From the NCBI GenBank assembly GCA_016192995.1, contig JACPTB010000002.1, forward strand, positions 98,283-162,282: a stretch of 64,000 nt of DNA, in the 5' to 3' direction. Positions 20,684 through 47,730 of this stretch are shown piece by piece. Made by a program: the position numbers and the translations under genes. The notes under the pieces are model-generated. The model did not search any database, was not told the DNA's origin, and was given only the letters and a program-made list of their open reading frames with translations. Each line of letters begins with the position of its first letter. Position 1 is the first letter of the stretch. Source of the DNA: Candidatus Woesearchaeota archaeon. Its GTDB lineage: Archaea; Nanobdellota; Nanobdellia; Woesearchaeales; DSVV01.

Positions 20684-21421
20684 TCACAACGTATCCCACA
20701 TAAACTGATACAATTTCTTAAACCCTTCGCTGATATCCTTGCTTTTAATAACAAACACTGTCGGCTCTTCTTTTAGTTTTCCAAACTCTTCACCAGAATA
20801 AATAATAGTATAATCGCCAAAGAATTCCATCGTCATTTTGCTGCAATATTTCTTTGGCAGGAATTTATAGACATTCTTTTTGAATTGCAAGGGATCCTTA
20901 ATATTCTTTTTCATATCTTCATCAAATATATGGCTAAAGGTGATATTTGATTTCTGCCGTTCACGATCAAATTTCATTCTAAAATATTTCAGCCGAGGAT
21001 CAAACCACATGCCCTTTCCGCCAATGCAATAATAAGGCTTTTTCTCCTTCAAAATATCAAACATATAATTCTTATACGCTTCAACACCCCGATAGAAATA
21101 AGCCTCTTCTTGCTGCTTGTTCTGTTCAAACTTTTTGATAAAATGTGGAAGAAAATGCTGCACTTTCTCTTCTTTTTCTTTCAACAATTCCAGCAAACGA
21201 CGTGGATGAATCCCTTTGTAATACTTCTGCCCTTTGACAAATAACTCAGTTGCCAATCCTTTAGCGCAGAGTCTTTCCATAGCATCATACACATTGCTCC
21301 GATTAATTTTCGTTTTAATTGACAGTGTATTAACCGAAGCTTCACCTAAATCAATAAGCACTTCATAGATACGAGCCTCATTGAGACTCAATCCCAATTC
21401 CATCAATACATCTTCATGCAT
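20684..21421 (-). CDS. trmB: TrmB-family transcription regulator
   Basis: N-terminal LGLSLNEARIYEVLIDLGEASVNTLSIKTKINRSNVYDAMERLCAKGL HTH plus TrmB C-domain length; paralog of 42302 gene. Confidence 0.7.
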   Translation of the reverse strand: MHEDVLMELGLSLNEARIYEVLIDLGEASVNTLSIKTKINRSNVYDAMERLCAKGLATELFVKGQKYYKGIHPRRLLELLKEKEEKVQHFLPHFIKKFEQNKQQEEAYFYRGVEAYKNYMFDILKEKKPYYCIGGKGMWFDPRLKYFRMKFDRERQKSNITFSHIFDEDMKKNIKDPLQFKKNVYKFLPKKYCSKMTMEFFGDYTIIYSGEEFGKLKEEPTVFVIKSKDISEGFKKLYQFMWDTL

Positions 21422-21532: not shown

Positions 21533-22744
21533 ATGCTGATTATAGAAAGACCCCAAGAGCTTAAAAAGATAACACAAATAAAGAAATGGCTGTTAATTTA
21601 TGGGAGGAGAAAAACAGGGAAAACATATCTCATCTCTACATTTCTCAAGCCAGATGAATATTTTTTTATAAAAAGCAATAAAAATATTTTGACTAAAAAC
21701 AATGAATCCATTTCTTATGAAACATTTATTGAGATAGTAAAACGCAGCCTTGCAAATAACAAAATAGTTGCCGTTGATGAATTTCACCGGTTAGGTACTG
21801 ATTTTTTTGATTTTTTGCATTATACTGAAAAAAAAGGAAAATTAATTCTAATTTCATCTACGCTTTATCTTTCGAAAAAGCTTCTTTCTGAAAAGTCAGC
21901 ATTGCTTGGATTATTCGCAGAAGTAGTTATTGGCCTGATTAGTTTGCAGGACATATTAAAAGCATTGGGAAAATATAATCTTCCAAAAAAAGAGCTGTTT
22001 GAAATTGCAATACTTCTCCGCGAACCGATTGCAATAGATTATTTTGATGAGAGAAAAAAAGCGAGGGAAACAGCAGCAATAATCATCGAGAGTTCTTTAA
22101 GAACAATTCCTGCCTTAATGGGAGAGATTTTTATTGAAGAACAGCGGGAAATTTCAGCAGTTTATGAAGGCATTCTTAGGGGAATAGCAATAGGAAAGAT
22201 AAATTCAGGGGAATTATCAAGCTATTTATTTTCAAAAAGATTATTGATGAAAGATGATCCTAGTATAATACAGCAATATCTTAATAATTTGATGCAATTT
22301 GGGATTATAAAAAGAATAGAATTATTTACCAAGAAGAGATTCGTATATAAACTGACGTCACCGCTGGCAAGAATTTATTATTACAGTGATGAAAAATACA
22401 ATATTTCTGAGAGGAAAATGAATGAAAAGGAACTGCTCGCCATTATAGATGAATTGATGCCAAGAATAGTGGAAGATACCGTCAGGGAAGAGCTTGCTGA
22501 AAAAGAAGGGTTAAGGGAAACAATAGTGGAATCCGCAGATTTCGAAATTGATGGCTGTTTGCTAAAATTTAAAACACCGGAAATAGCATTGGAAGTTAAG
22601 TGGAAAGATAGTACTAAATTAAATATTAATGAGATTAATAATAAATTAAAAGAAATAGACGCAAAAAAAAGAGTGTTATTTGTTTCTGATAAGAAAACAG
22701 TGAAAAACAATGGATTAATAATCATGGATCCAGCAGATTTATAG
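21533..22744 (+). CDS. archaeal ATPase (Arch_ATPase, DUF234 family)
   Basis: Walker A GRRKTGKT, Walker B VAVDEF, C-terminal DUF234-like region. Confidence 0.65.
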   Translation: MLIIERPQELKKITQIKKWLLIYGRRKTGKTYLISTFLKPDEYFFIKSNKNILTKNNESISYETFIEIVKRSLANNKIVAVDEFHRLGTDFFDFLHYTEKKGKLILISSTLYLSKKLLSEKSALLGLFAEVVIGLISLQDILKALGKYNLPKKELFEIAILLREPIAIDYFDERKKARETAAIIIESSLRTIPALMGEIFIEEQREISAVYEGILRGIAIGKINSGELSSYLFSKRLLMKDDPSIIQQYLNNLMQFGIIKRIELFTKKRFVYKLTSPLARIYYYSDEKYNISERKMNEKELLAIIDELMPRIVEDTVREELAEKEGLRETIVESADFEIDGCLLKFKTPEIALEVKWKDSTKLNINEINNKLKEIDAKKRVLFVSDKKTVKNNGLIIMDPADL

Positions 22745-22930: not shown

Positions 22931-23476
22931 ATGACTAAAGAAACTATTGACCTATTAATTGTAACCACCGGCGGATCTATTGATGCATATATGAAATGGC
23001 CATCAGCAGAAAGACCTGGCTGGTGTATAGAGATTCTGAATAGAGAAACACAAATTCCAGAAATAGTCAAGCATTTAGGAATAGAAGGAAAAGTAGAGTA
23101 TGTTCCCATTTGCATGAAAAATTCTGACGACATAACTGATGCAGACAGAGATGCAATGTACAAAGCAATAGCAAAAAGTCCTCAAGAGTCTGTTGTTATA
23201 ACACATGGATTAAACACCCTAAAACAAACACAGATTTACTTAGAACGAAAACTTAGAGCTGATAATCCACTTACGTTGCCAAAAACAATTGTTCTTGTTG
23301 GCTCAAAAACACCTGATGTTGCTGGTCATCATGGAGAAGGAATAATTCAAGTAGGCTATGCAATTGCATCTTCTCTTACAGCTCGCCATGGTGTATATCG
23401 GGTTGACAATGGAAGATTACTTGATGTCCAAGGCAGAAAATACGATCATGATCAATTCAGAAATGCAACAGGCTAA
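22931..23476 (+). CDS. asparaginase-family protein, N-terminal domain only
   Basis: VTTGGSID (Thr nucleophile motif), VITHGLNTL, TIVLVGSKTPDV; lacks C-terminal domain. Confidence 0.5.
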   Translation: MTKETIDLLIVTTGGSIDAYMKWPSAERPGWCIEILNRETQIPEIVKHLGIEGKVEYVPICMKNSDDITDADRDAMYKAIAKSPQESVVITHGLNTLKQTQIYLERKLRADNPLTLPKTIVLVGSKTPDVAGHHGEGIIQVGYAIASSLTARHGVYRVDNGRLLDVQGRKYDHDQFRNATG

Positions 23477-23494
23477 AAAGGTTGGAGCATACAA

Positions 23495-23722
23495 ATGACC
23501 AACAATACGATCAAAATCCTCGTCACTGGCGGAACCTTCGACAAGGAATACAACGAATTAACAGGAGAGCTTCACTTTAAAGACACTCATATCGCTGAAG
23601 TCTTAAAGAAAGGAAGATCAGAAGTTGACATCATTATCAGAAACATTATGATGATTGATAGTTTGTATATGAAAGATAATGACAGAAAAAACAAAGCAAC
23701 GGGAAAATTTGAAGAGAGATAA
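23495..23722 (+). CDS. asparaginase-family fragment (75 aa)
   Basis: ILVTGGTFD N-terminal motif then divergent short tail; likely gene remnant. Confidence 0.35.
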   Translation: MTNNTIKILVTGGTFDKEYNELTGELHFKDTHIAEVLKKGRSEVDIIIRNIMMIDSLYMKDNDRKNKATGKFEER

Positions 23723-23734
23723 GAGGAAAGCAAC

Positions 23735-24892
23735 ATGTCAAAGAAACCAGATAAAGCTTATCTTATTGAATGTGATGAAATTTACCGAAGATTTATTGAA
23801 GAAGAAATTCCAGAGCCAAAAATTACTTTAGACTGGACAGGAAAACCAAAAAAGCCGCGAGTATTATTGTTATATACTGGCGGAACATTGGGAATGAAGA
23901 AAAAAGTAAATCAAAAAACTCAAAAAGAAGAATTAGTTCCTGATTTAAGCCTTGAACAATTATGCGCTGCAGCAGATTTTGTTGCAGGAATCAAAAATAG
24001 ATATAATCTTTTAGGATACCATGTTTCACATGTTGATAGCACAGAGATTAATGTAAAAGTATGGAAGACATTAGCAGGTTTAGTTCATAAGCATTATGAA
24101 GAGTTTGATGGTGTAGTAGTCTTGCATGGAACCGATACATTACAATATACCTCAGCAGCTACAGCATTTTCATTAAGAAATTTAGCCATACCTGTGGTGC
24201 ATACTGCTGCGCAAATGATTTTGCAAGCTGATGGTTCAGATGTTCTGATGAATTTAACAGGATCATTAGCTGTTGCAACATCGAAAATAGCTGAATCTTG
24301 CGCTCTTATAACGGGAGAAATATACAAAGGAACAAGACTTGAAAAAGTAGATGATTCCAGAATATTAACTTCATTTGGCTCTCCCATTTATGGAAGCATT
24401 GGCCATTTAGGCAGCCATGGTGTTGTGTTAGATCAACGAGCAGTAGTCAGAGGAACTTATATTCCAAGTGATTTAATTTATGCACCTGAATTTGAAACTA
24501 GTGTTCTTGAAGTGGTGATTACTCCAGGTTTAAGTCCAAGAGTTGTTGACGCTGCAATTGATGAATCAGAATGCAAAGCATTAGTCATGAGATCTTTTGG
24601 ACCAGGAAATATGCCACGATGGTTTATCCCGCTTATTAGAGCAAAAGCAAGTGAAGGATATCCAGTATATGTTTCATCGCAATGCGCAGGAAGCGGAATT
24701 TCTGCAGGTGGAAGCGACTATGCAGTAGGACAAGCTGTTTTAGAAGCAGGCGGAGTTCCGATTGGAGATATGTCTCCGACAGCTACAACGGTAAAGCTGA
24801 TGAAAGTAATGGGATACACAAAGGACAATGCAGCCATTAAAAGAGAAATGGTTGGAAATATATATGCGGATGAAATTACCCATTACAAATAA
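23735..24892 (+). CDS. L-asparaginase-family protein (type I / GatD-like), full length
   Basis: LLLYTGGTLGM, VVLHGTDTL, complete C-terminal domain; 385 aa with ~40-aa N-terminal extension. Confidence 0.65.
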   Translation: MSKKPDKAYLIECDEIYRRFIEEEIPEPKITLDWTGKPKKPRVLLLYTGGTLGMKKKVNQKTQKEELVPDLSLEQLCAAADFVAGIKNRYNLLGYHVSHVDSTEINVKVWKTLAGLVHKHYEEFDGVVVLHGTDTLQYTSAATAFSLRNLAIPVVHTAAQMILQADGSDVLMNLTGSLAVATSKIAESCALITGEIYKGTRLEKVDDSRILTSFGSPIYGSIGHLGSHGVVLDQRAVVRGTYIPSDLIYAPEFETSVLEVVITPGLSPRVVDAAIDESECKALVMRSFGPGNMPRWFIPLIRAKASEGYPVYVSSQCAGSGISAGGSDYAVGQAVLEAGGVPIGDMSPTATTVKLMKVMGYTKDNAAIKREMVGNIYADEITHYK

Positions 24893-24941
24893 AACGAAAA
24901 TATCAAGAAAATTTAAATAGTAATTAATCACAAGATTTTTC

Positions 24942-25969
24942 ATGAAGAAAATGGAAACTACAACAAAAAAACCAAAAATCTGCATTCTTTTCTGTGGCGG
25001 CACAATTGTGATGGCAAAAGATCCAAAAACAGGTTCTTTAGACATGTCAGGCGGCATAAATGAAATTCTCAACTTAGAGCCAAAATTAAAAGAAATTGTG
25101 GAGATGAATGTTGAATTCATCGACAACATAGATAGCACCAATACCAAAGAACACCATTGGGATACTATGGTGAAAAAGATTACAGAAAAATACAATGATT
25201 ATGATGGATTTGTTATCACCCACGGCACTAATACCATGGGTTACACTCAAGCGCTTTATCATTTGCTTTGCAAGGGATAGGAAAACCTGTTGTTTTGACA
25301 GGCGCGCAAATTCCAGCCAATCAATTAGAGAGTGATGCACGAAGAAACTTTGTCAACGCTGTAAAATTGGCAACGATGAACATTGCGCAAGTGATGGTTG
25401 TTTTCGGGAGCAAAGTTATTCTCGGCACCAGAGCAAAAAAAGTTTCAGAATCAGAACTGGAAGCATTCAAAACATTCAACGCTCCGGACTTAGGCGAAAT
25501 CAGATTAAGCATTGAACTAAAACAAGAACACAAAAAACGTCATAATCATCCATTTACACCAAAGCCTGGCTTCAACGCAAATATTATTGTCTTAACTTTA
25601 GAACCAGGCATAAGAACAGAAGATGTCATGAAAATAGTAGAATCAGATATCAAAGGTTTAGTAATCCGAGCATATGGCAGTGGTGATCTACCTTACTCGT
25701 TGCTGCCAGCATTAGAGCGCGCTCATAAAAAAAAGATTCCAATTGTTGTCACAACACAATGTCCTATTGGCGTGACGAGAATTGGATTAAATGACGTTGG
25801 ATTAAAAGCATTGCAAACTGGCATTACGCAGGCATTTGATATGTCAATGGAATCAATGACGACAAAATTAAAATGGCTTCTTGATAAAAATACACCGTAT
25901 GAACGGATTAAGGAAATAATGGAAACAAACTTGGCAGGAGAATTAGTTCCGCCGATAAAAGATAGTTAG
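24942..25969 (+). pseudogene. asparaginase-family gene split by a frameshift near 25247-25252
   Basis: ORF 24942-25280 has ILFCGGTIVM and VITHGTNTMGYTQAL; +2 frame continues SALSFALQGIGKPVVLTGAQIP (TTG-initiated ORF 25268-25969); one-nt indel restores a canonical asparaginase. Confidence 0.55.
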
Positions 25970-25978
25970 GAGCATAAA

Positions 25979-26845
25979 ATGGTTGATATTACGCAGTTTG
26001 GAAACCTGAATTATACGTTTATTGCTATTTTATCATCATTATTCGCAGCAATAGCTAACATTCTTGCAAGAACGCTATTGAAAGACATTTCAACAAAAGA
26101 TATTTTAGGTATTAATTTCTTAATTATGTCGGCAACCTTATTGCTATTTTCACCGTCATTCTATTATTTTAAAGTAACACCCTATTCATTATTTTTATTG
26201 CTGACAATTGCAGCTATTGACCTTATTGCAAACTATTTTTATTTTAAATCATTTGAAAATGCAGAAGCATCAATAGTGACACCGTTATTGTCAATAACAC
26301 CAATGTTTGCTTTTTTCTTTGGCTGGATGTTAATTGGCGATGCAGTAAGCATAAAACAATTATTATTAGGAACTGCAATCGTAGGTTTAATCATTTATTT
26401 TTCATTTGATTTTTCAAAGAAAACTAAATTAACAGGAGAAAGCAAAGGAATATTATATGCAATAATCGCATCACTATTGTTTGGATTATCCGCAATTCCG
26501 AGTAAAATATTGCTAAGCAAATTAGAAGCAATAAATCCATTGTCATTATACATGCTGCGAGGAGCAATTATTGGATTGCTTGCAATCATGATTTTCAAAG
26601 TAGATCTCAGTAAAATTACGCCATCACATTTCAGAATCATAGTTGTCAGGGGATTATTTGTCATTACACAATGGGCTTTATTGTATTTTGCTTTGTTCAA
26701 AGGAAAAGTTGGCGTAAGCATTACCTTAGCCAATATTACGCCCATTTTCGTATTCATCCTCAGCATAATATTCCTGAAAGAAAAACCAACCTGGAAAAAG
26801 GCATTGGCAGCAGCAATGGTATTGGTATTGTCGTTTATGTTATAG
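25979..26845 (+). CDS. EamA/DMT-superfamily transporter
   Basis: 288 aa, ~10 TM, two EamA-like halves. Confidence 0.6.
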   Translation: MVDITQFGNLNYTFIAILSSLFAAIANILARTLLKDISTKDILGINFLIMSATLLLFSPSFYYFKVTPYSLFLLLTIAAIDLIANYFYFKSFENAEASIVTPLLSITPMFAFFFGWMLIGDAVSIKQLLLGTAIVGLIIYFSFDFSKKTKLTGESKGILYAIIASLLFGLSAIPSKILLSKLEAINPLSLYMLRGAIIGLLAIMIFKVDLSKITPSHFRIIVVRGLFVITQWALLYFALFKGKVGVSITLANITPIFVFILSIIFLKEKPTWKKALAAAMVLVLSFML

Positions 26846-26875: not shown

Positions 26876-27274
26876 TTAACAAATGTTTAAACCAGGAATT
26901 TGATTAAAATGCTTAATATTGTTTGTTTTCAAAGTACATTTATGCTCAAATGCAAGTGCACCAATAAATAGATCTTTAGTATCAATAACTGTTCCTTTCT
27001 TTTTAAGAAACGATGAGAAATCACTAACAATTTCAACTGATAAAGCTGAAAAGTTCAAGATAGTAATATTTTTTTCAAGAATTTTAATTTTTTCTAAGTT
27101 TTCTTGTTGTTTTGCAGATATTTTTGCTCCATGATAAAGCTCAAAAAGATTAACAATAGTGGTACAAAGATTATGATGCCTATTGGAGTCTATATAATCT
27201 ACTGCATAAAACTTATTTCTCAAAAAATCCACTAGCACATCAGTATCTAAGCAAATGTTTTCCATTTTTTCCAT
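26876..27274 (-). CDS. vapC: PIN-domain toxin VapC
   Basis: N-terminal CLDTDVLVDFLR classic PIN motif. Confidence 0.7.
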   Translation of the reverse strand: MEKMENICLDTDVLVDFLRNKFYAVDYIDSNRHHNLCTTIVNLFELYHGAKISAKQQENLEKIKILEKNITILNFSALSVEIVSDFSSFLKKKGTVIDTKDLFIGALAFEHKCTLKTNNIKHFNQIPGLNIC

Positions 27275-27501
27275 CCCTTTCTTAAACTATTTTTCATTTC
27301 CTTCACTTCCTTATCAGTCATTTTCCAACTTCCTGCTAAATTCATGATATTTTGAGAAGTTGGTCTTTCCTTCAATGTTTTGAGTGCTGAATCTATAGAT
27401 ACTGAATGACCTGTTTCTTTTTGTAATTTCCCTGCCATAGATACCAGCCAGGTATAATTTTCTTCACTTATTTTAATTGTCTTCATCCCCATAATTACCA
27501 C
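27247..27501 (-). CDS. vapB: VapB-type antitoxin
   Basis: TIKISEENYTWLVSMAGKL ... LAGSWKMTDKEVKEM typical archaeal VapB; overlaps vapC; 9-bp inverted repeat TTACCACCT/AGGTGGTAA spans its start. Confidence 0.55.
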   Translation of the reverse strand: MVIMGMKTIKISEENYTWLVSMAGKLQKETGHSVSIDSALKTLKERPTSQNIMNLAGSWKMTDKEVKEMKNSLRKGWKKWKTFA

Positions 27502-27782: not shown

Positions 27783-28994
27783 TTAAGATATAATTACATT
27801 ATTAATATCTTCAATATCTTTAAACTGTTTCACAAGAATCTTTTTAGAAAATGAGGACTTTTCAAAGAATTCTAACTCTTTTTCTTCAATCTTCTTTTTA
27901 TATTTTACTTCTATGGCAATTGTTTTCTTTTTAATTAGTATGATAAAATCAATCTCTTTATTGTTTTCAAAATAATAGTATAGAGGATACTGTTTAATCT
28001 TAAGATATACTAAATTTTCAACTAAGCTTCCTTTATCTTTAAATCCAACAAAAGCATTTCGTATACCTACATCTGCAATGTACAATTTTTTGGGAGAATG
28101 AATTTTTTCATTAAGAGATTTTGCATACCTATCAATTGAATAAAACAAAAAAGTATCTTTAAAATATTCAAGAAATCTCCGTATGGTATCAACACTTACT
28201 GAAAGCACTCTCGCAAGCTTAGACAGGGTTATTGTTTTGCCAGCTCGTTCACAAAGTAATTGAAACATTTTCTCAACAATATCTTTTTCTTTAATATTAT
28301 GATAGGCAATAATATCTTTATAGAGTATTTGTTCGATAGTATTTTTTAAACAGTTTACATCTTGAGTAAGCACATATTCTGGCATACCTCCTATTTTGAG
28401 ATATTCTTCAAAGTAGCTTTCAAGTAAATACTGTTCTGATGGTAGTATATTGATATTTTTAAATTGAAGAAATTCAGTAAAATCTAACGGAAGAACTTCA
28501 ATGATTAATGACCTGCCAACAAGATAATTATTTTTTGATTTAAGCAATGATGCTGATGATGAAGATGCAAAAAATTTAATATTTTCAAGATCATAAAAGT
28601 TTTTTAATTCCTGCTCAAAAGATGATGATTGTGTTACTTCATCTAAAAAAACATAAATGGGTGTTTCCAAACCAATACTATGCATTTTTCTATATTCTTC
28701 AACCAATTGGTGTATTGTTTTATCTTTAAAAGAAATAAAATCCATAGTCAGATAGAAAATTCTCTTAGGTTCTGTTGTCGAAAGCAAATAGTGGATAAGC
28801 TGCTTTAATAAGGTTGTTTTTCCTACTCTTCGCAGACCTGAGAGAAATACTATTTGTTTTGTTTGAAGCTCTTGTTTCATCAAACTAAGGTATTTTTCCC
28901 TTGTAAGACCTGCAGAAAACTCCTTTTTCTCCCACCAAGGATTCATTAATGAAAATATCTGTTGTAAATCATCCATAAGCATATTAAACCACAT
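27783..28994 (-). CDS. AAA ATPase, COG1373/DUF4143 family
   Basis: Walker A GLRRVGKTTLL, Walker B VFLDEV, C-terminal DUF4143-like. Confidence 0.65.
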   Translation of the reverse strand: MWFNMLMDDLQQIFSLMNPWWEKKEFSAGLTREKYLSLMKQELQTKQIVFLSGLRRVGKTTLLKQLIHYLLSTTEPKRIFYLTMDFISFKDKTIHQLVEEYRKMHSIGLETPIYVFLDEVTQSSSFEQELKNFYDLENIKFFASSSSASLLKSKNNYLVGRSLIIEVLPLDFTEFLQFKNINILPSEQYLLESYFEEYLKIGGMPEYVLTQDVNCLKNTIEQILYKDIIAYHNIKEKDIVEKMFQLLCERAGKTITLSKLARVLSVSVDTIRRFLEYFKDTFLFYSIDRYAKSLNEKIHSPKKLYIADVGIRNAFVGFKDKGSLVENLVYLKIKQYPLYYYFENNKEIDFIILIKKKTIAIEVKYKKKIEEKELEFFEKSSFSKKILVKQFKDIEDINNVIIS

Positions 28995-35587: not shown

Positions 35588-37006
35588 ATGATAACAATTA
35601 AGCAACAACCTGATAGCAATGTATTAATTATCCCATTATTCAAAGGAAAAGTGCCTAAATTAAATACAACACTTTCAAAAATTCTTTACTACAACAAAAC
35701 TTTTGCTGAGGAAGACAAATTTAATACGACGTTTATTGAGAGAGAAACAATCATCTTCGCTGGTTTAGGAGAAGAAAATAAATTAACACAGGAAAAAGCG
35801 CGTATTTTCGGTTCAAAAGTATATGGTTTTCTTAAAAGCAAGGAAATTAAAGAAGCTTCTCTGATTGAATTTTCATCAAAAGCTGAAATACTACAGGGAT
35901 TTGCAGAAGGCTGGCATTTGGCAGGATATGCCTTTGATAAATATAAAAAAGAAAAAGAAAAAAGAGTTGAAAACTTAACCTATGTTTCAAAAGAAAAAAA
36001 ACTGCAGGAAAATCTTGATAATGCTGCAAAAATAACTGAAGGAGTTATGATTACTCGTGATCTTGTTAATGAAATTCCTTCAACAGCGCATCCAAAATAT
36101 ATTGCAGATTATACAAAAAAATTATTTGTAAAAAGTAGTAAAGTAAAGGTTAAGATTCTTGGAAAGCCAGAAATTGAAAGATTAAAAATGGGTTGTTTAC
36201 TAGGTGTAAGCAGAGGTTCTCCTGGAGAACCGCAAGTAGTTATTATTGAATATACTGGATTGAAATCTTCCAAAAAACACCATGTTCTTGTAGGAAAAGG
36301 TGTTACCTATGACAGCGGTGGCTTAAACTTAAAACCGACAGGTTTCTTAGAAACCATGAAAGATGATATGGGCGGAGCAGCAGCGATTATTGGCGCTATA
36401 AAGGCAATAGAAAACTTGAATGTACCAATAAATATTACCGGCATCTTAGGTTGTGTTGAAAACCTGATTGGAAGCAATGCTTATAAGCCAGGAGATGTCT
36501 TAATCAGTGCCGCTGGTAAAAGTGTAGAAGTCGCAAATACTGATGCTGAAGGCAGATTAGTTTTAAGTGATTGCCTGCACTATGCTACAACATTAAAACC
36601 TGAAGCAATTATAGATCTTGCAACATTAACAGGTGCTGCGCTTGTAGTGATGGGAAAGAATTTTGCTTGTGTTATGGGTAATAATCAAAAAATGATTAAT
36701 GAAGTCATCAAAGCAGGCGAAGAATGCCATGAACGTTCATGGGAGCTGCCGCTTTATGATGAATTCAAAGAGGATATTAAAGGTAGTATTGCTGATCTCA
36801 AGAATTTAGGAAAACCTAAAGGAGAAGCTGGTACTATTGCAGGAGGGATATTCTTACAAGAATTTGTAGACAAGTACCCTTGGGTTCATATTGATATAGC
36901 TGGTCCTGTATGGTCAGACAGCCAAAAAAATTATATACCTGAAGGTGCTACTGGCTTTGGAGTAAGGTTATTAGTCCAACATTTTACCAATCTTACTCAT
37001 AAGTAA
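35588..37006 (+). CDS. pepA: leucyl aminopeptidase (M17 family)
   Basis: NTDAEGRLVLSD signature and metal-binding region. Confidence 0.85.
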   Translation: MITIKQQPDSNVLIIPLFKGKVPKLNTTLSKILYYNKTFAEEDKFNTTFIERETIIFAGLGEENKLTQEKARIFGSKVYGFLKSKEIKEASLIEFSSKAEILQGFAEGWHLAGYAFDKYKKEKEKRVENLTYVSKEKKLQENLDNAAKITEGVMITRDLVNEIPSTAHPKYIADYTKKLFVKSSKVKVKILGKPEIERLKMGCLLGVSRGSPGEPQVVIIEYTGLKSSKKHHVLVGKGVTYDSGGLNLKPTGFLETMKDDMGGAAAIIGAIKAIENLNVPINITGILGCVENLIGSNAYKPGDVLISAAGKSVEVANTDAEGRLVLSDCLHYATTLKPEAIIDLATLTGAALVVMGKNFACVMGNNQKMINEVIKAGEECHERSWELPLYDEFKEDIKGSIADLKNLGKPKGEAGTIAGGIFLQEFVDKYPWVHIDIAGPVWSDSQKNYIPEGATGFGVRLLVQHFTNLTHK

Positions 37007-37017
37007 GGTGAGAATGT

Positions 37018-37407
37018 ATGCCAGACATAAGAAAACAGTTAACCTGCCAGCGTTGCGGAAAAAGTATGCCAATAGATGATGTTAAATACCTTCCTAAGCC
37101 TGGAAGTTCTGATTATATAGTTAGTTGCATTCCATGTTTAGAAAAAAACAAACATCTTGAATCACACACTCCTAAAAGTATTCCTGAAACAAGCGAAGGT
37201 AAGAAGAAAGTATACTTTTGCGGAAGATGCAGATATAAATTCACCTATGATACTACAAAAAAAGCCACAACAAGATTAAAATGCCCTATGTGCGGCAAAG
37301 ATGATTTCTTAAACAAAGATTTGAAGACAAGCAAGGATGTGTTGAAAGAAGTTTCCAAGCCTGGATTTGATGAATTAAAAGCAGGTATTATGAGAAAAAA
37401 GTTTTAG
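37018..37407 (+). CDS. double zinc-ribbon protein
   Basis: CQRCG...CIPC and CGRCR...CPMCG. Confidence 0.35.
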   Translation: MPDIRKQLTCQRCGKSMPIDDVKYLPKPGSSDYIVSCIPCLEKNKHLESHTPKSIPETSEGKKKVYFCGRCRYKFTYDTTKKATTRLKCPMCGKDDFLNKDLKTSKDVLKEVSKPGFDELKAGIMRKKF

Positions 37408-37411
37408 AAGT

Positions 37412-38671
37412 TCATACATTCCCCAATACCTTCTCAGAATCTGCTATTCGTTTAAGAGCAAGATAGTAGGCTGCATGCCGTAAACTAACATTGTTTTCAG
37501 TTGCTACTTGAGGTATATCTTTAAACGCTTTGGTTATTTTCTGCTCTAATTTTTTAATAACTTCATCTTCTTCCCAGTAATATCCTTGTAAGTTCTGCAC
37601 CCATTCAAAATAACTAACAATGACACCACCAGCATTAGCAAGAATATCAGGAATTACAATAACTCCTTTCTTAAATAAAACTGCATCAGCTTCTGCGCTT
37701 ACCGGTCCATTGGCAAGTTCAAGGATGTACTTTGCTTTGACTGAATCAACATTCTTCTTAGTAATTGCATCGCCTAAAGCAGCTGGAACAAGGATATCAA
37801 CTGGTAAAGCTAGCAATTTCTCATTAGTTATTTCTGTTGCATCTTTAAAATTTTTTAATGAACCTGATTTTTGTTTATGATCATAAACTTTTGAAATAGC
37901 CAAGCCTTTTTTATCATAAATTCCAGACTTAGAGTCACTAACAGCAACAATAGTATATCCCCATTCTGATAAAATTCTTGCCATATGATATCCTGCATTC
38001 CCAAATCCTTGTACTGCAACAGTTAGTTTTTTATGATCTAATTTTTTAAGCTTAACAAATTCACGCAGCACAAAAGCCCCGCCTTGTGAGGTTGCATAGG
38101 AACGGCCTTTGCTGCCCCCAAGAGCTAATGGCTTACCAGTTATTACTCCAGGTACTTTCTGATTGGTAATAGATTCATATTCGTCCAACATCCAAGCCAT
38201 AATTTGTTCATTAGTATTAACATCAGGAGCAGGAATATCAACATATGGCCCTATAAAAGGTGCAATCTCCCTAATATATCCTCTGCTTAGTCGTTCGAGT
38301 TCTCGTTGCGACAATGTTTTTGGATCAACAACAACACCGCCTTTTGCCCCCCCATAGGGTATATCTGCTACAGCGCATTTCAAACACATTAAAAAAGCAA
38401 GCATTTTAACTTCTTCAAGATCAACTTCTGGATGAAAACGAATCCCCCCTTTTGCTGGCCCGCGAGCATCAGAGTATTGTACACGATAACCAGAGAATAC
38501 TTTTACATTTCCATTATCCATGCGAACAGGAAAGTTAACATTGATAACACGGCGAGGAAGTTTGATAGTTTCTAACTCAGGAATTTGTAAATTTGTTTTT
38601 TTAAGTTGATCAAGTTGCAATTGACATGCTTTACAGACTGCGTCTTCATAACCCTTCATATTATCACCCAT
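37412..38671 (-). CDS. gdhA: glutamate dehydrogenase
   Basis: [14 protein letters not shown] catalytic motif and [10 protein letters not shown] Rossmann motif. Confidence 0.85.
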
Positions 38672-38753
38672 AAAAGCGAGTAAGGTGGTGTTTATATAGA
38701 TTTTGTTGAATAAACAAAATACATTTAAAATAACGTGATATTATCAAGTAATT

Positions 38754-39059
38754 ATGGGAAACAAAGAAGTTAAAGAAAAGAAAATTGATCGATTTGAAGA
38801 TATTATTAACATATTGAAAGATTATGAAAAAAATACCCCTAAAGCAGAAGGGAAAGTGAGCAGTAATCACATATATGAAAATTGTATGTGCGGTTCCAAA
38901 CATGGAGACGAACGTGATAAAGAAAAAGAGCACGCCTATCATTTGAGTGAATTAACTGATGAACCTATAACCAAAGAAGACATAGAAAAAAGATCACCCT
39001 TAATCATCAAAGATGACGAACAAGATGATGAGGATGATGAAAAAGAAGAAGAAGAGTAA
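38754..39059 (+). CDS. small acidic protein, paralog 1 (CxC...HGDE...AYHL)
   Basis: 101 aa; shares ILKDYEKNTPK...CxCG..HGDE..D.E.AYHL with next ORF. Confidence 0.4.
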   Translation: MGNKEVKEKKIDRFEDIINILKDYEKNTPKAEGKVSSNHIYENCMCGSKHGDERDKEKEHAYHLSELTDEPITKEDIEKRSPLIIKDDEQDDEDDEKEEEE

Positions 39060-39099
39060 ATCATTACATTTTAAAATAGGAAAGTTCATCACGTAGATT

Positions 39100-39366
39100 A
39101 TGCGCGAAAACAAACACAAGAAAGGAAAAAAAGATCCTCTCAAAGAGATCATCAAGATTCTAGAAGAATATGAAAAAGACACACCAAAAATGAAAGCCAA
39201 AGATACAAAAAGTACCTTTGACTCATGCAGGTGTGGCACGCCTCATGGCGATGAACAAGATACAGACCCTGATGAAGCATATCATTTAAGAAGCCATGCT
39301 GAGAATGTAGATGAAAGTGAAGTTACAGAAACAAAAGAGAAGAAAGTAAAAACAAAGAAAAAATAA
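39100..39366 (+). CDS. small acidic/basic-tailed protein, paralog 2
   Basis: 88 aa; ILEEYEKDTPK...CRCGTPHGDEQDTDPDEAYHL. Confidence 0.4.
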   Translation: MRENKHKKGKKDPLKEIIKILEEYEKDTPKMKAKDTKSTFDSCRCGTPHGDEQDTDPDEAYHLRSHAENVDESEVTETKEKKVKTKKK

Positions 39367-39376
39367 AAGATATTCT

Positions 39377-40924
39377 TTATTCTGAAGGTCTTATCCATGA
39401 TTCTTTTCTCGACATAAGCAAACAGCATAAAGTGCTTATCCCGATAGTAAACAACGATGCTCCAACAATCCAAACTGGCTTGTCAATGATATTGCCATAG
39501 ATAAAGAAAGGAACACCGATTACAAACGACGTCAACACCCCCCAAAATACTCCTCGTGCATCTAATCTATTCCAATACAAACTTAACACTGTTGGCACGA
39601 CAACACAAGCAGCAATACTATTAAAAATCCACCACAATTGTTTTAACCCAAAGTTTGGAATATAGGTAACAGCTAACGCAACTAAAAACCCAACAATTGT
39701 TATGCCAAACATCGCTAATTGTGAATTTCTGATACCCTTTTTATCAAGTTGTTTTGCAATACTTATTTCTTCAGGATTAAGCTGCCGCTGTTGATCCATT
39801 TTTTGTAAAATTTCTCGTTCTTTTGCAGTATATTTCACTACATCAGTTACATACAATGAACTTGCAGCATTTAATCCTGAATCCAACGTTGAAAGCAAAG
39901 CACTTAATAACATTACAACAAACAAAACTAATGCACTTGCAGGAAGAAATTTTGCAACTGCAACAACACCAATCATCGAGACATCAATTCCTTCAGGCAA
40001 GGTGATTCCAAGGGATGAATTAGCTGCAAGGAATCCCAAAAATGACAAGACAACAGGTACAATCCCAAACATAAAAGCACCAAACACAAATGAAGGAACT
40101 AAATTGTTCTTTTTAATGGCAAAAGCACGCTGCCAGTATTGCTGGTCTGAAATTGCTCCAGAGATAAGTCCAATTGCTGTAACAATACCAAAAGAAAATG
40201 CAACGCTTGGATCAAAAAGACTAGTGAATTTTCCACTAACTCCACCTAGTCCTAAAGTAACTGCATGAAACCCACCCACTTTTAATAATATCCATGGAAT
40301 AACAACAACAATACCAATAATAATTAAAAGAAATTGAACAAAATCAGTAACAATAGATGATTCAAGCCCTGAGATTAATGAATATGTTAAAACAATCACT
40401 GCCAATATAATCATAACAGGAATAACTGGTATGCCTGTAAGAAAAGAAACAAGATTACCTCCCGCATAAAGCTGCACGGTAACAGCCATCACTTGATAAA
40501 AAAAATAAGGAAACAAATAGATAGTATGCACTCTCTCACTTTGCAAACGATATTTAATCCACTGTGGTAAAGTGTAACCATAAGGTAATTTTTCTCGGAT
40601 TTTAGGAGCTAAAAACATAAAGATAAGCAACGCAATAATATTAGGAATAACAAACCAAAATATTCCCGGCAATCCCTGTTTATAGGACACTTGAACAGAG
40701 ATAAATAATGCTGGCGCCCAAATCCAAGATGCTGCAATACTTGCTGCGCCAAGCCACCAACTAACATTTCTTTCTGCAACAAGAAAACCTTGAATAGTTT
40801 TATATTGTTTCCATCGTGCAAAAACATACGTAATGAGAATCATAAATATGCCATAGATAACTAAAATAAGATATCCCATCCATGCCGGTAAAGTTGTTAT
40901 TGATGACATAGTTTCACACTCCAA
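39377..40924 (-). CDS. sodium:solute symporter family transporter
   Basis: ~13 TM, SSF-type N-terminal region. Confidence 0.7.
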   Translation of the reverse strand: MECETMSSITTLPAWMGYLILVIYGIFMILITYVFARWKQYKTIQGFLVAERNVSWWLGAASIAASWIWAPALFISVQVSYKQGLPGIFWFVIPNIIALLIFMFLAPKIREKLPYGYTLPQWIKYRLQSERVHTIYLFPYFFYQVMAVTVQLYAGGNLVSFLTGIPVIPVMIILAVIVLTYSLISGLESSIVTDFVQFLLIIIGIVVVIPWILLKVGGFHAVTLGLGGVSGKFTSLFDPSVAFSFGIVTAIGLISGAISDQQYWQRAFAIKKNNLVPSFVFGAFMFGIVPVVLSFLGFLAANSSLGITLPEGIDVSMIGVVAVAKFLPASALVLFVVMLLSALLSTLDSGLNAASSLYVTDVVKYTAKEREILQKMDQQRQLNPEEISIAKQLDKKGIRNSQLAMFGITIVGFLVALAVTYIPNFGLKQLWWIFNSIAACVVVPTVLSLYWNRLDARGVFWGVLTSFVIGVPFFIYGNIIDKPVWIVGASLFTIGISTLCCLLMSRKESWIRPSE

Positions 40925-42301: not shown

Positions 42302-43117
42302 ATGTACGAAGAACTATTCCGCGAAATTGGCTTAAGTCCAAACGAAGCTAGAATTTACGAAGCATTGCTCCAAACAGGCGATGCTTCAGTGCAGACTATT
42401 GCAATTAAGGCAAACATTCATCGGAGAAATGCATATGATGCTTTAAGCAGACTTTTAGAAAAAGGATTAATCTCCCAAACCATTCTCAGCAATGAGCAGC
42501 ACTTCAAAGCAACCAATCCAGAACGATTGCTTTCCATGATAAAAGAAAAAGAAGATAAAATAACAAAAGCGCTTCCGGAAATCAAGCAAAAGTTTTTTCA
42601 AAAACAAGAAAAAGAACAAGCATATATCTACAAAGGCATCCAAGGATTCAGAAATTACATGCAGGATATTCTTGATGTTGGCAAAGATGTTTATTGCATT
42701 GGCGCTAAAGGTGGATGGTTTGAACCACGATTAAAAACATTCAGATTTAGATTCTATGAAGAACTCAAAAAAAAGAACGTCAAATGCTACCATTTATTTG
42801 ATGCAGAAATGATGCAACAGCAGAACGAAGCTGAAGGACCTGTACCAGTACATCTCCATGAAGCACGATTTTTACCTGAAAAATATTCCACACACTCAGC
42901 AATTGATATTTTAGATGATCGTGTCATTACTTTCACTGGATTAAATATTAACAAGCTTGATGATGATGTCACTATATTTGTGTTAATAAGCAAAAAACTA
43001 GCTGATGATTACAAAAAATGGTTTTGGCTGATGTGGAATGCAAGTTCCCCAATTGATAAAGGAGAAGAAAAAGCTAAAGAGAACTTTGCAAAATTATGGT
43101 TACTGCCTATTTTGTGA
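42302..43117 (+). CDS. trmB: TrmB-family transcription regulator (paralog 2); last 13 codons MITE-derived
   Basis: REIGLSPNEARIYEALLQTGDASVQTIAIKANIHRRNAYDALSRLLEKGL; C-terminus ENFAKLWLLPIL encoded by MITE copy D. Confidence 0.65.
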   Translation: MYEELFREIGLSPNEARIYEALLQTGDASVQTIAIKANIHRRNAYDALSRLLEKGLISQTILSNEQHFKATNPERLLSMIKEKEDKITKALPEIKQKFFQKQEKEQAYIYKGIQGFRNYMQDILDVGKDVYCIGAKGGWFEPRLKTFRFRFYEELKKKNVKCYHLFDAEMMQQQNEAEGPVPVHLHEARFLPEKYSTHSAIDILDDRVITFTGLNINKLDDDVTIFVLISKKLADDYKKWFWLMWNASSPIDKGEEKAKENFAKLWLLPIL

Positions 43118-43482: not shown

Positions 43483-46400
43483 ATGAATGAACAAAAAATC
43501 CTGCGAATTAAAAAAAGAACTGGTGAATATGTTGGATTTGATCTGAAGAAAATTTCTAATGCTATTTTCAAAGCTGCCCAGGCAGTGGGAGGTTCTGATT
43601 ATAAAATCTCAGAACGATTAGCAGAACAAGTTTTTGACATGCTCAATGAACAGGACTTGAAAGAAGACATACCTTCAGTGGAAGATGTTCAGGATTGCGT
43701 TGAAAAAGTGCTTATTGAAACAGGACATGCAAAAACAGCAAAAGCTTTTATCTTATATAGACAAAAACGTGCAGAAGCACGATTAAAAGCTGATGCATTA
43801 GTTGGTATAAAAGGTTTGGAAGAAAAGCAAGATCCTTTTGGCGTGAATGAAGAATTATTCGGCAGTTCATTAACCAGCCATAATATCAAAGTTACGGTAA
43901 CTGAACCAATTGCAAAAATGTTTACGTATAACAGCAAATTATCCAAGTTAGTGGATAAAAATAAAATTAATGCCTATAGAAAATTATTTTATATGCTCAA
44001 GGATATGCAGAAGGAGGGTTCGTTGCCATTGCATCCTGCAAATGATTATTTAGCAGGCAATGAACTTGCCATGGATATTTACAGGAAAAAATATTATGTC
44101 CACGATCTTGATGATAACCTTATTGAGCAGCGTCCGGAAGATGTATTTGTAAGGCTTGGTTCTTATCTTGCATCTATTGAAGAAGATGAAGACAATCAAG
44201 TGTATTTTGCCCAGGAATTCTATAAAATGCTTTATGAAGGATATTTTGTGCCTGGCGGCAGAGTAATTGCTGGAGCTGGAGATTTATATAGATTAAAAAC
44301 ATTAGCAAATTGCTTTGTTTCAGTGATGGAAGATGATAACATTGAATCTATTTACAAAGCTGCTTTCGAATGTGCGCGAACATATTCATATGGGGGAGGA
44401 ATTGGCGTTGATATTTCTACCCTGCGTCCAAGAGAAGCTGTGGTACATAATGCAGCAAATTTCTCAACAGGCAGCGTTTCATTCATGGAAATCTACTCAT
44501 TAACAACAGGGTTAATTGGTCAAGCTGGAAGGCGAGGCGCATTAATGCTAACTATTGATGTTAAGCATCCTGATATTCTTAATTTTATTAGAGTCAAACA
44601 AGAATCAAATTGGGTGACAAAACAGATTAGGGAGCAATGCAGCTGGTCAGGAAAATTCAACGCTGAACAGCTGGATGCGATTGAAAAACAAGTTCGTGAA
44701 AACACCCAGGTAAGGTTTGCAAATATTAGCATGAAAGTTACTGATGAATTCATGACTGCTGTTGAAGAGCAAAATAAGTATGGAAAGGATAAAATAGTAG
44801 TGTATAAAAAATTTAGCAAATTGATTATTAATAGAGTTAACCAAAGCAAAGAAATGAATTTTGCCTTTGGCATTCCTTCAAAATATTTAGAGAATTATGA
44901 GTTATATAAAGTATTTGAAACCATTGAAGAAGCAAATGAGTTTATACATAAAGAAACAAACAAACAGATCTCCAAGCAATTGCTTGAAAATGTGCAGAAC
45001 AGGGACATTTATGGAGATGTAATTGTACCAGTAGAATCACAAAATTATGATTTAGCAGTGAGATATTCAGGTGATTATTTATTATATTTTAGTTCTGAAC
45101 CTGCAGGAGAAACAAGAAGATTAGTAAAAGCGCGGGATATTTGGGATGAATTTGTTAAAGGTAATTATCAAACAGCTGAGCCAGGATTAATATTCTGGTC
45201 AAGAATGACAAAGTATTCACCTTCTAATTATATAGGGAGACCAATTGCAAGTACAAACCCCTGTATTGCAGGAAACTCACAGGTATCAACAAGTAAAGGA
45301 TTGCAGCAAATAAAAGAGCTTGTTGGTAAAACGCCTCAGATTCTAACTGACAACCGAGTGCCTATACAAGTGAGAGATACTAACGGAAGAATTATGTTGC
45401 TCGAACAAAAACAACAAGGAGTAAGTTTTGACACTATAGAAGCAGCATGGTCATCGGGAATTAAAGAAACCTATAAACTTACCACAAAAAAGGGCTATGA
45501 AATCACTGCAACAGGTGATCATAAGATTATGACTACTGAAGGTTTTAAGCAGTTACATGAACTTACACCTAAAGATAAAATTTTAATCCAAAAAGGAGAA
45601 GGCATGGGAAACAATGATAAGCTATTATCTATTGAAAGAGATGAAATTATCAAAGGAGATAATAATCATATCTATCATTACAAATTCCCCACAACATGGT
45701 CAAAAGAACTTGGGCAATTGCTTGGTTGGACAGTAGGAGATGGATTTATCACTCCTGAACCAGATAATAGACTTGGGTTAGTATTTAGTAAAGAAGATGA
45801 AGACGTGATGAGCCAGTTAAAGAAGTTTATTGAGGAGATATATGGAAAAGAAACAAAACCAAGCATCAGAGAGTCTACAACACAATTAAGATACCATAGT
45901 AAATATTTTTGTGATTTTCTACGTAGATTAGGCATCAAAAGTGTAAAAGCTGAACTTAAGCAAGTTCCGCATAGGATATTTACTGCGCCAAAAGAAGCAG
46001 TAGTAGGATTTTTACAGGGATTGTTTACTGCTGATGGAACTATGGCAGTTGGCGAAAAAGGGAATTATATTCGATTAACTTCTAAGTCAGAAAAGCTTCT
46101 GAAAGAAATACAAATAATACTTATTAACTTAGGGATGTTATCTACAATCTATGAACGCCATCGAACTCCTCAGAAAAAATTTAATTACTATAATGCAGCT
46201 GGAGAATATAAAGAGTACATAACAGATGGGAAATTATGGGAGTTAAGTATAACTAAAGGAAGCTTGCAGCGATTTGTTGAAGAAATTGGGTTTATAGGAA
46301 GTAAACACCAAGAAAGAATAAAAGTATTTCTCACAAAGAAACAATACCAAGAACACTTTTACGATACTATAAAAAGCATAGAACCACAGGGAAAACAAGA

Positions 46401-47730
46401 AGTATTTGATCTAACAGAACCACGAACACATTCTTTTATAGCTAATGGCATTGTTATTTCAAATTGTGGTGAAGTGCCATTAGAAGACGGCGGCGCTTGT
46501 AATCTTGGATCAATTAATCTTTCTCGGTTAGTAATTGATGGTTTTACTGATACTGCAAGAATTAACTGGAACGAACTTGAACGAGTAACAAAGTTGGCTA
46601 CACGATTTTTAGATAATGTTGTTGGCTGGAATATTTCATTGAATGCTCTTGATAAACAACGGAGTGCTGCTGCAGAAACACGAAGACTTGGTTTGGGTGT
46701 TATGGGAATTGCAGATATGTTATTTCAGCTTGGTTTAGAATATGATAGTGAAGAGGGTATAGCAGTTATTGAGAAAGTTTGTCAGGTTATTGCTAATGCA
46801 GGTTATCGTGAATCCGCAGAATTAGCTGAAGAAAAGGGAGCTTCACCAGTATTTGATTATAACAAATACAGCCGCAACCCATTTTTTAAAGAAGCTCTTG
46901 ATGACAATACTAAAGAATTAGTCAAGAAAAAAGGATTGCGGAATATTGCAATACTTTCTATTGCGCCAACAGGAACTATTTCAAATATTGTATTAGGGTA
47001 TAAAGGAGAGCAAAAGAATTATATTGGTGTTAGCGGCGGTGTTGAACCGGTATTTGCAATATTTTACACGAGAAGAAGTGAAAATTTCGGCAACAAACGA
47101 TTTAACATCTTCCATTCAACAGTAAGCGCTTATTTGGATAAAAAAGGGCTCCAGGAAAAAGCGCAGTATGCAACAAGTGAAGACGAACTCCGCCAACTGT
47201 TGCCTGGATGCTTTTTTAGAACTGCCCATTATATTGAGCCTGAAAAAAGAGTTTTAATTCAGGGAGACTGCCAAAAATATACTGACCATAGTATTTCATC
47301 AACCGTCAATTTACCTGAAAGCATAAGCCCTGAAACCATTTCAGAGATTTACATTAAAGCATGGAAATTTGGCTTAAAAGGGATCACTATTTACCGTGAT
47401 GGAAGCAGGTACCCTATTTTAAGCATTCAGCAACAGCAAAGCGCATTTCAAGATTTCAAGAAAAAACAATTCAAATATGTCTCTGATGGAAAAGAAATCA
47501 TAGTAAGAGGCGACCAAGTTATAAAGCTGCCTCAGGGAAAGCTTTCAACGCCGTATCATGCGCAGAGAGAAAACATTCAAGGGATAGTGTTAACCGAGAT
47601 CACTGATCAACCAGCGATAACTGAAGAAGACAGTTCTAATAAAAATGAAGATCATAAAGATGATAACAAAGCTAAAGTCTGCACTATTAGTTTTGAAGAT
47701 GGAAAGCTTGTTAAATCATGCTCAGAGTAA
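43483..47730 (+). CDS. nrdJ: class II (adenosylcobalamin-dependent) ribonucleotide reductase with ATP-cone and intein
   Basis: N-terminal ATP-cone ILRIKKRTGEYVGFDLKKISNAIFKA; catalytic TNP-C...GEVPLEDGGACNLGSINL; C-terminal GLKGITIYRDGSR and terminal Cys pair. Confidence 0.85.
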   Translation: MNEQKILRIKKRTGEYVGFDLKKISNAIFKAAQAVGGSDYKISERLAEQVFDMLNEQDLKEDIPSVEDVQDCVEKVLIETGHAKTAKAFILYRQKRAEARLKADALVGIKGLEEKQDPFGVNEELFGSSLTSHNIKVTVTEPIAKMFTYNSKLSKLVDKNKINAYRKLFYMLKDMQKEGSLPLHPANDYLAGNELAMDIYRKKYYVHDLDDNLIEQRPEDVFVRLGSYLASIEEDEDNQVYFAQEFYKMLYEGYFVPGGRVIAGAGDLYRLKTLANCFVSVMEDDNIESIYKAAFECARTYSYGGGIGVDISTLRPREAVVHNAANFSTGSVSFMEIYSLTTGLIGQAGRRGALMLTIDVKHPDILNFIRVKQESNWVTKQIREQCSWSGKFNAEQLDAIEKQVRENTQVRFANISMKVTDEFMTAVEEQNKYGKDKIVVYKKFSKLIINRVNQSKEMNFAFGIPSKYLENYELYKVFETIEEANEFIHKETNKQISKQLLENVQNRDIYGDVIVPVESQNYDLAVRYSGDYLLYFSSEPAGETRRLVKARDIWDEFVKGNYQTAEPGLIFWSRMTKYSPSNYIGRPIASTNPCIAGNSQVSTSKGLQQIKELVGKTPQILTDNRVPIQVRDTNGRIMLLEQKQQGVSFDTIEAAWSSGIKETYKLTTKKGYEITATGDHKIMTTEGFKQLHELTPKDKILIQKGEGMGNNDKLLSIERDEIIKGDNNHIYHYKFPTTWSKELGQLLGWTVGDGFITPEPDNRLGLVFSKEDEDVMSQLKKFIEEIYGKETKPSIRESTTQLRYHSKYFCDFLRRLGIKSVKAELKQVPHRIFTAPKEAVVGFLQGLFTADGTMAVGEKGNYIRLTSKSEKLLKEIQIILINLGMLSTIYERHRTPQKKFNYYNAAGEYKEYITDGKLWELSITKGSLQRFVEEIGFIGSKHQERIKVFLTKKQYQEHFYDTIKSIEPQGKQEVFDLTEPRTHSFIANGIVISNCGEVPLEDGGACNLGSINLSRLVIDGFTDTARINWNELERVTKLATRFLDNVVGWNISLNALDKQRSAAAETRRLGLGVMGIADMLFQLGLEYDSEEGIAVIEKVCQVIANAGYRESAELAEEKGASPVFDYNKYSRNPFFKEALDDNTKELVKKKGLRNIAILSIAPTGTISNIVLGYKGEQKNYIGVSGGVEPVFAIFYTRRSENFGNKRFNIFHSTVSAYLDKKGLQEKAQYATSEDELRQLLPGCFFRTAHYIEPEKRVLIQGDCQKYTDHSISSTVNLPESISPETISEIYIKAWKFGLKGITIYRDGSRYPILSIQQQQSAFQDFKKKQFKYVSDGKEIIVRGDQVIKLPQGKLSTPYHAQRENIQGIVLTEITDQPAITEEDSSNKNEDHKDDNKAKVCTISFEDGKLVKSCSE
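45262..46464 (+). other. intein (401 aa) with LAGLIDADG homing-endonuclease domain, inserted before catalytic Cys of nrdJ
   Basis: N-terminal splice CIAGNS, block B TGDHKIMT, LAGLIDADG motifs LLGWTVGDGF and VVGFLQGLFTADG, C-terminal HSFIANGIVISN followed by extein Cys. Confidence 0.8.

Follow-up and report, generated by a model that had tools for sequence, protein, structure and literature searches.

The asparaginase cluster of a Woesearchaeota genome raises the question of whether four consecutive genes of one family, one shortened and one split, record a duplication followed by decay, or an older assembly of distinct genes, two of which have recently failed. The window, i.e., the whole stretch of 64,000 nucleotides (nt) analyzed here (G+C content 33.5%; NCBI locus tags HYY69_*), comes from a 189,440-bp contig in the metagenome-assembled genome (MAG) of a groundwater Candidatus Woesearchaeota archaeon, a member of DPANN. 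The original prediction, made from the DNA alone, described a tandem array of asparaginase-family genes, and this array is real: five open reading frames (ORFs) occupy positions 22931–25969 of the plus strand, the motif strings quoted for them are present, and all five match the Asparaginase family PF00710. These are O1 (22931–23476, 181 amino acids (aa), E = 9e-9), O2 (23495–23722, 75 aa, E = 0.046), O3 (23735–24892, 385 aa, E = 2e-40), and the two parts of a fourth gene, O4a (24942–25280, 112 aa, E = 1e-26) and O4b (25268–25969, 233 aa, E = 3e-22). At the family cut-off of 22.5 bits, O1 (35.5), O3 (138.6), O4a (93.7), and O4b (79.6) pass, and O2 (13.7) falls below. The genes from O1 through the EamA-family transporter gene that follows O4 are separated by gaps of 18, 12, 49, and 9 nt.

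We consider it quite probable that the locus is a lineage-restricted cluster of four anciently diverged class 1 asparaginase paralogs, two of them recently inactivated, and not a recent tandem duplication. The cluster would combine two units: an older module comprising a TrmB-family regulator, the divergent short-chain O1, the canonical short-chain O2, and the rare long O3; and a type I asparaginase of the kind found in the Candidate Phyla Radiation (CPR) and DPANN, accompanied by its EamA transporter. O2 would then have been inactivated by a single recent in-frame internal deletion of ~88 codons and O4 by a single recent loss of 1 nt, while O1 and O3 would have stayed under purifying selection.

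Recent tandem duplication of O1–O4, which the original prediction took to be in progress, is not supported: pairwise protein identities are at most 31%, O1–O4 show no nucleotide similarity, and each gene falls in a separate subfamily that has orthologs elsewhere. At the protein level, O3/O4 are 27% and O1/O4 31% identical; O2/O4 give a marginal match (31% over 52 aa, E = 0.04), and O1/O2, O1/O3, and O2/O3 yield only short, non-significant blastp matches. The G+C content at third codon positions is 0.21 in each of O1 and O3, 0.43 in O2, and 0.40 in O4a, a contrast that hints at a different history of O2 and O4 from that of O1 and O3, possibly a later acquisition. A graded series of decay, as had been proposed, is not supported either: the lesions of O2 and O4 seem recent, and purifying selection acts on O1 and O3.

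O1 had been read as a truncation retaining only the N-domain; instead, it aligns along its length to an enzyme of similar size. The prototype of the short-chain L-asparaginases, a family of 160–185 aa described as stand-alone bacterial homotetramers, is RrA of Rhodospirillum rubrum (172 aa; PDB 8UOO series; Protein Sci 2024, PMC10949315). Residues 8–166 of O1 align to the RrA structures 8UP6/8UOO (phmmer, E = 3e-14; residues 21–166 of the 185-aa construct), and O1 covers positions 5–150 of a 163-position short-chain hidden Markov model (HMM). Four homologs of 166–181 aa were found, with 56–80% identity; TTGGSIDA, THGLN, and the C-terminal GVYRVDNGRLLD.Q.R.YDH.QFRN are invariant across all five sequences of the family, and the ratio of nonsynonymous to synonymous substitution rates (dN/dS) is 0.18–0.33 in all ten pairwise comparisons. 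A scan of Joint Genome Institute metagenomes with the O1 alignment found no relative. As judged from these alignments, O1 is a full-length short-chain protein of the RrA type, intact and selected.

The catalytic residues of RrA are Thr16, Tyr21, Thr87, Asp88, and Lys158, together with the family-specific Lys19 (PMC10949315). In O1, Ser16, Ala19, Leu94, and Asn95 replace Thr16, Lys19, Thr87, and Asp88, respectively, and all four replacements are fixed in the five members; the region of Tyr21 reads Tyr20/Met21. O1 thus departs from the RrA catalytic set, and we treat it as a homolog without filing it as an asparaginase by function. Because the Thr–Asp pair of the second catalytic triad is gone, O1 is probably a non-catalytic or re-purposed partner, and probably incapable of canonical asparaginase chemistry. 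The Thr of this triad is essential, as seen in mutagenesis of E. coli EcAII.

The Thr-nucleophile motif had been assigned to the starts of all four genes, and HGT(D/N)T to all four as well. We take the nucleophile to be the Thr after GG, by our own reading of the EcAII sequence around Thr12 and by the numbering of RrA Thr16 (PMC10949315), and not the first Thr of TGGT; therefore, CGGT of O4 retains the nucleophile, whereas GGS of O1 has lost its Thr, replaced by Ser. The second motif is found in O3 (HGTDT) and O4 (HGTNT), but O1 has HGLNT, and O2 has lost the region altogether.

Comparison with related loci suggests a recurring module. Two contigs (L006 and L007) carry an O1 homolog followed by an O3 homolog at a TAA, 2–3 nt, ATG junction, through which O1 would be translationally coupled to O3, and have no O2; in L006, a TrmB gene lies upstream. 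Two other contigs (L008 and L009) carry an O1 homolog followed by an O2 homolog. In a marine lineage (L094, L097, and L098), the order is TrmB (shown for L094), the O3 homolog P0246 (55% identity), an intact 161-aa O2-type gene with HGTGT, and an O1-like short-chain gene. The three-gene block of this lineage is 99.9–100% identical across three assemblies from three different records, and in all three the frame of the O1-like gene, which lies downstream of the O3 homolog (L094, 2554–3058; L097, 1728–2232; L098, 1861–2365), is broken at the same site inside TGGT: MKIHFIITG is followed by DN and a stop, and the next frame continues with VTIDSYY. Because of these arrangements, we take the recurring module to consist of TrmB, one long gene of the O3 type, and two short-chain types, with different members apparently disabled in each lineage. 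Such clustering is rare: of 80 other genomic loci that carry a gene of the O2 type, only one had a second asparaginase-family ORF within ~4 kb.

The TrmB-family transcription regulator of the window (20684–21421, minus strand; PF01978) lies upstream of the cluster and shares 65% identity with its L094 counterpart, which sits immediately before the O3 homolog there; the TrmB of the window is the probable regulator of the asparaginase cluster. The spacer between the two varies, with an AAA_14 ATPase gene (21533–22744) between TrmB and O1 in the window, a ParE toxin gene preceded by a small ORF in L006 (1886–2339), and nothing in L094. A second TrmB-family regulator, at 42302–43117 of the window, is 43% identical to the L094 TrmB and, by this similarity, a paralog of the regulator adjoining the cluster.

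The short-chain paralogs O1 and O2 may be partly redundant, because different lineages lost different ones. A bolder reading, to which we assign a small chance, is that this DPANN clade has an undescribed hetero-oligomeric asparaginase-like system, consisting of an O3-type amidohydrolase with short-chain subunits, the O1 type being a conserved pseudoenzyme. By analogy with RrA, where a hairpin supplies Tyr in trans, the short-chain hairpin could complete or regulate the O3 active site; the short-chain subunits would be partly redundant, and this redundancy would account for the loss of the O2 type in the groundwater lineage and the frameshifted O1 type in the marine lineage.

We return to the cluster of diverged paralogs and its first lesion. 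O2 had been described as a stub, and it is one: N-terminal 64 residues joined in frame to the native C-terminal 11, with ~88 codons (~264 nt) gone and the native stop kept. O2 matches positions 2–63 of the 163-position HMM of its own subfamily (E = 1e-33), and its first 64 residues are 60–75% identical to the widespread TGGTFDKEYNELTGE subgroup of short-chain asparaginases, hosted by Verrucomicrobiota, Bacteroidota, Acidobacteriota, and some Thermoplasmatales and Thermococci. Full-length members of this type have 157–173 aa, mostly 161–167 (26 genome loci), and end in ...NGRxFxWDNVRKN(K/R)xTGxFEE; the C-terminal RKN..G.FE motif holds the catalytic Lys158. The terminal residues of O2, KDNDRKNKATGKFEER, match this C-terminus with 21.8 bits against 4.8 for the runner-up (position matrix, 531 C-termini of window ORFs), and the pattern [RK]KN[KRH]xxGxF[EV] occurs a single time among the 128,000 six-frame residues of the window. 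In the MAFFT alignment, O2 has one gap of ~91 columns, between DRK and NKATG. Absent are residues ~65–152 (HMM positions ~64–152), including HGTDT, the TGAMIP region, Thr87, Asp88, and most of the core; in the retained part, 32 of the 33 highly conserved family columns are kept. On this evidence, O2 appears to be a genuine remnant of a canonical short-chain asparaginase. No closer full-length homolog was found in the protein collection.

The deletion junction (Arg64–Lys65, 23684–23689, plus strand) lies within D-N-D-R-K-N, and because it can be read either as the N-part D-x-D-R or as the C-part D-N-V-R-K-N, a microhomology-mediated deletion is suggested. The deletion is identical in two other assemblies that span the junction (L001 and L002). 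Over 42 codons, O2 and its L008 homolog differ by ten synonymous and no nonsynonymous substitutions; because of this, the lesion would be young, or the fragment still constrained.

The second possibility leads to the suggestion that all four genes are functional specialized paralogs, with the 75-aa O2 as a selected mini-protein whose oligomerization hairpin (TGGTFDKEYNELTGEL) and RKN tail modulate other family members. We regard this as unlikely. The frame and the native stop are indeed kept, the conserved columns are nearly all retained, the lack of nonsynonymous change is seen at a synonymous divergence of ~0.5, and the hairpin still present in O2 makes up the tetramer interface of RrA and gives Tyr21 in trans (PMC10949315). 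However, most of the Rossmann-like core is missing from the fragment, Thr87 and Asp88 with it; the databases contain no other protein of this 75-aa form; the chance of retaining the frame is one in three; and O2 is absent from L007, the closest relative by O1 (80% identical), and from L006, hence dispensable.

Recent inactivation within the diverged cluster is also seen in O4, which is split at the place indicated by the original prediction. The gene is a type I asparaginase of the CPR/DPANN kind. Its 5' part, O4a, runs into a premature TAG (25278–25280), and its 3' part, O4b (PF00710 and PF17763), continues in the -1 frame, which is open from 25232. Four orthologs (L096, L010, L012, and L013) read TAC ACT TCA AGC (GYTSSALSFAL) in the codon alignment, and the window reads TAC ACT CA AGC, one T being lost at 25247–25248 (plus strand; window sequence ACTCAAGC). 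As had been anticipated, one inserted nucleotide would restore the enzyme: the repaired protein scores 280.2 bits on TIGR00519 (cut-off 260.5), against 88.7 and 164.4 for the pieces as encoded, and its whole length can be aligned to those of more than 100 intact homologs (50–71% identity). These come from DPANN archaea and CPR bacteria, e.g., Magasanikbacteria, Kerfeldbacteria, and Liptonbacteria.

Decay of O4 was gauged by the retention of conserved columns and not by dN/dS, because at identities of at most 71% synonymous sites would be saturated. O4 retains 68 of the 70 invariant and 124 of the 129 near-invariant columns of 15 orthologs, within the range of the intact orthologs themselves (leave-one-out), and hence the missing base appears to be the only detectable damage. 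CGGT and HGTNT as marks of decay are ruled out, both being conserved across the O4 clade: FCGGT and HGTNT, the latter with Asp to Asn in the triad, occur throughout (proteins P0126–P0245), and the flexible-loop Tyr is absent.

Similar to the type I L-asparaginases of TIGR00519 (T. kodakarensis asparaginase TkA, 5OT0; the P. horikoshii enzyme, 1WLS; E. coli AnsA, 2P2D), repaired O4 has the two-domain architecture; unlike them, its clade has HGTNT for HGTDT, FCGGT, and no flexible-loop Tyr, and O4 itself is frameshifted. We know of no characterized member of this clade, and a literature search on DPANN and Woesearchaeota asparaginases found no work with these terms in title or abstract.

O4 seems to belong with its neighbor. 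The EamA-family transporter gene (25979–26845, plus strand, 288 aa; PF00892) starts 9 nt downstream of O4, and L096 shows the same order, with an intact O4 ortholog (71% identity) and, after it, an EamA gene that is 63% identical to that of the window, so that O4–EamA appears to form a separate unit. A TTTAAATA box, read from the sequence 23 nt upstream of the O4 start, may be an archaeal TATA box, i.e., a separate O4 promoter. Other O4 orthologs stand alone, adjoining a ~264-aa polytopic membrane protein (L010, 5144–5941; L012, 5149–5940; L013, 1624–2418). These proteins have no Pfam hit and are 58–69% identical to each other; the window has the EamA transporter in that role. Homologs of this protein, and of a 501-aa neighbor of the O3 relative P0247, were not found in the window.

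Two alternatives to inactivation bear on the O4 split. The first, which we find decidedly unlikely, is that O4 functions despite the frameshift, by programmed -1 ribosomal frameshifting (proposed in the original prediction), by transcriptional slippage, or by non-covalent assembly of two fragments. Both halves are as conserved as in intact orthologs, the -1 frame overlaps the first by 49 nt, and TTG at 25268 could serve as a start of the second half. However, neither an X XXY YYZ heptamer nor a homopolymer occurs in 25232–25280; a scan of the window found no Rfam element; no Shine–Dalgarno-like sequence precedes 25268, as read from the sequence; the break falls in the helix directly after HGTNT, within the N-domain core; and the full-length relatives (~320–370 aa) among the matches listed are all unsplit.

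The second, very unlikely, is that the O4 split, and perhaps the shortness of O2 too, is a sequencing or assembly artefact, the genes of the organism being intact. MAGs do contain indel errors, the O4 lesion is a single base in a TT dinucleotide, and secondary decay of O4 is absent. Against this, the deletion site has no homopolymer run longer than two and no slippery site, and it is spanned and identical, beyond the NCBI MAG, in three Logan assemblies of different runs (SRR12113418, SRR12113426, and SRR12113422); no intact O4 allele, i.e., none above 71% identity, is assembled anywhere in a collection of 5.8 billion clusters; and the ~264-nt deletion of O2 recurs unchanged in L001 and L002. 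Logan assemblies of five different runs carry the whole 3.2-kb block, or the portion of it covered per contig, without a single difference (100% identity).

O3 is full length and intact, as had been stated (PF00710 and PF17763). It carries GGT, DS, HGTDT, and the conserved Lys, without the flexible-loop Tyr, and shares with type I L-asparaginases the two-domain architecture and the catalytic Thr, Ser, Thr–Asp, and Lys. Unlike these enzymes, it falls below the TIGR00519 cut-off (179.3 bits against 260.5; 167.5 for its relative P0246), has VVHTAAQ for VVLTGSQ, and possesses a 40-aa N-terminal extension. The extension is conserved in P0246, and its 40 codons give dN/dS of 0.08–0.10 against L006 and L007. 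Among 1.84 billion representatives, searched exhaustively with HMMER, only P0246 (55% identity) and P0247 (35%) are close relatives, the remainder being generic matches at 27–37%.

Against the models of GatD, a subunit of the tRNA-dependent Glu-tRNA(Gln) amidotransferase, O3 scores 156 bits on NF003217 (cut-off 310) and 150 bits on TIGR02153 (cut-off 324), matching only from model position 50–70 onward; repaired O4 scores 227 and 225 bits, respectively. O3 reads as an intact protein under purifying selection, outside both GatD and the curated type I family and part of a long subfamily that is very rare. It is probably a working amidohydrolase that converts Asn, possibly Gln, to the acid and ammonia.

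We consider it extremely unlikely that O3, alone or with O1, represents a divergent GatD-like subunit, a possibility also raised in the original prediction: the scores of O3 against P. abyssi GatD (1ZQ1, 135.0 bits) and T. kodakarensis asparaginase (5OT0, 135.9 bits) are nearly equal, and it shares the fold and catalytic motifs of GatD (1ZQ1, 2D6F), with slight resemblance past the asparaginase core at both ends, and the GatD alignment enters the extension (GKPKKPRV/GKPGLPEV and YADEITHY/YAGEITPY), but O3 lies below both equivalog cut-offs, lacks the ~70–80-aa GatD N-terminal domain and a gatE neighbor, stands among other asparaginases and a transporter, and belongs to an extremely rare subfamily, whereas GatD, to our knowledge, should be universal in archaea without GlnRS. 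Within the 64-kb window, no GatB/GatE domain, and no GatE, was found among the eight ORFs of at least 500 aa, which encode a PEP synthase/PPDK, a UvrD-family helicase, an unknown 506-aa protein, an ELP3/radical SAM protein (574 aa), an SSF symporter, two ribonucleotide reductases, and an AAA ATPase.

Several points weigh against our interpretation of four diverged paralogs, two of them recently inactivated. The assemblies that repeat the frameshift apparently stem from one sampling project, as their run accessions are consecutive, and represent one population. The relatives are few (~six lineages) and lie on short contigs; in particular, the L008 and L009 contigs end after 42 and 15 codons of the O2 homolog, too early to judge its length. 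The absence of nonsynonymous change in O2, and the conservation of O4, may equally mean that the fragments are still functional. The O1 equivalent of RrA Lys158 is ambiguous, being either K170 (K or R across the family) or R177, and the AlphaFold2 model of O1, built from the five-sequence alignment, has a mean predicted local distance difference test score of 55, too poor for use. Finally, the roles of O1 and O3 are read from residues and synteny only.

Current understanding is not overturned by this locus, which presents ordinary gene loss in an unusual cluster. It is, however, a cleanly resolved case of early gene loss in a reduced DPANN genome, with two simple deletions and no secondary decay. 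Short asparaginase ORFs beside long ones need not be truncation products, because short-chain asparaginases, recognized in 2024, are a separate full-length class. Modestly new is a small conserved family of short-chain homologs whose catalytic triad is dismantled; the family is under purifying selection and is coupled to a rare long paralog and TrmB. The short-chain family generally has a scattered distribution shaped by horizontal transfer, and O1 and O2 are homologous to it across the short chain; the difference here is that two short-chain types lie beside long paralogs in one archaeal operon. This operon context could guide experiments on what short-chain asparaginases do physiologically. 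The HGTNT clade of CPR/DPANN type I enzymes is large and uncharacterized.

Genes likely of mobile or defence type flank the cluster (21533–22744, 26876–27501, and 27783–28994): two ATPases of the AAA_14/DUF4143 type and a PIN-domain toxin, the latter preceded by a small partner. A tRNA scan of the window found nothing. Further downstream, at a distance of 10–15 kb (35588–40924), the window encodes an M17 leucyl aminopeptidase, a glutamate dehydrogenase, and a sodium:solute symporter, consistent with a neighborhood of amino-acid scavenging and catabolism. The window also has two ribonucleotide reductase large-subunit genes separated by 2.6 kb: one of 1415 aa with a LAGLIDADG intein (43483–47730) and an intein-free one of 676 aa (50331–52361).

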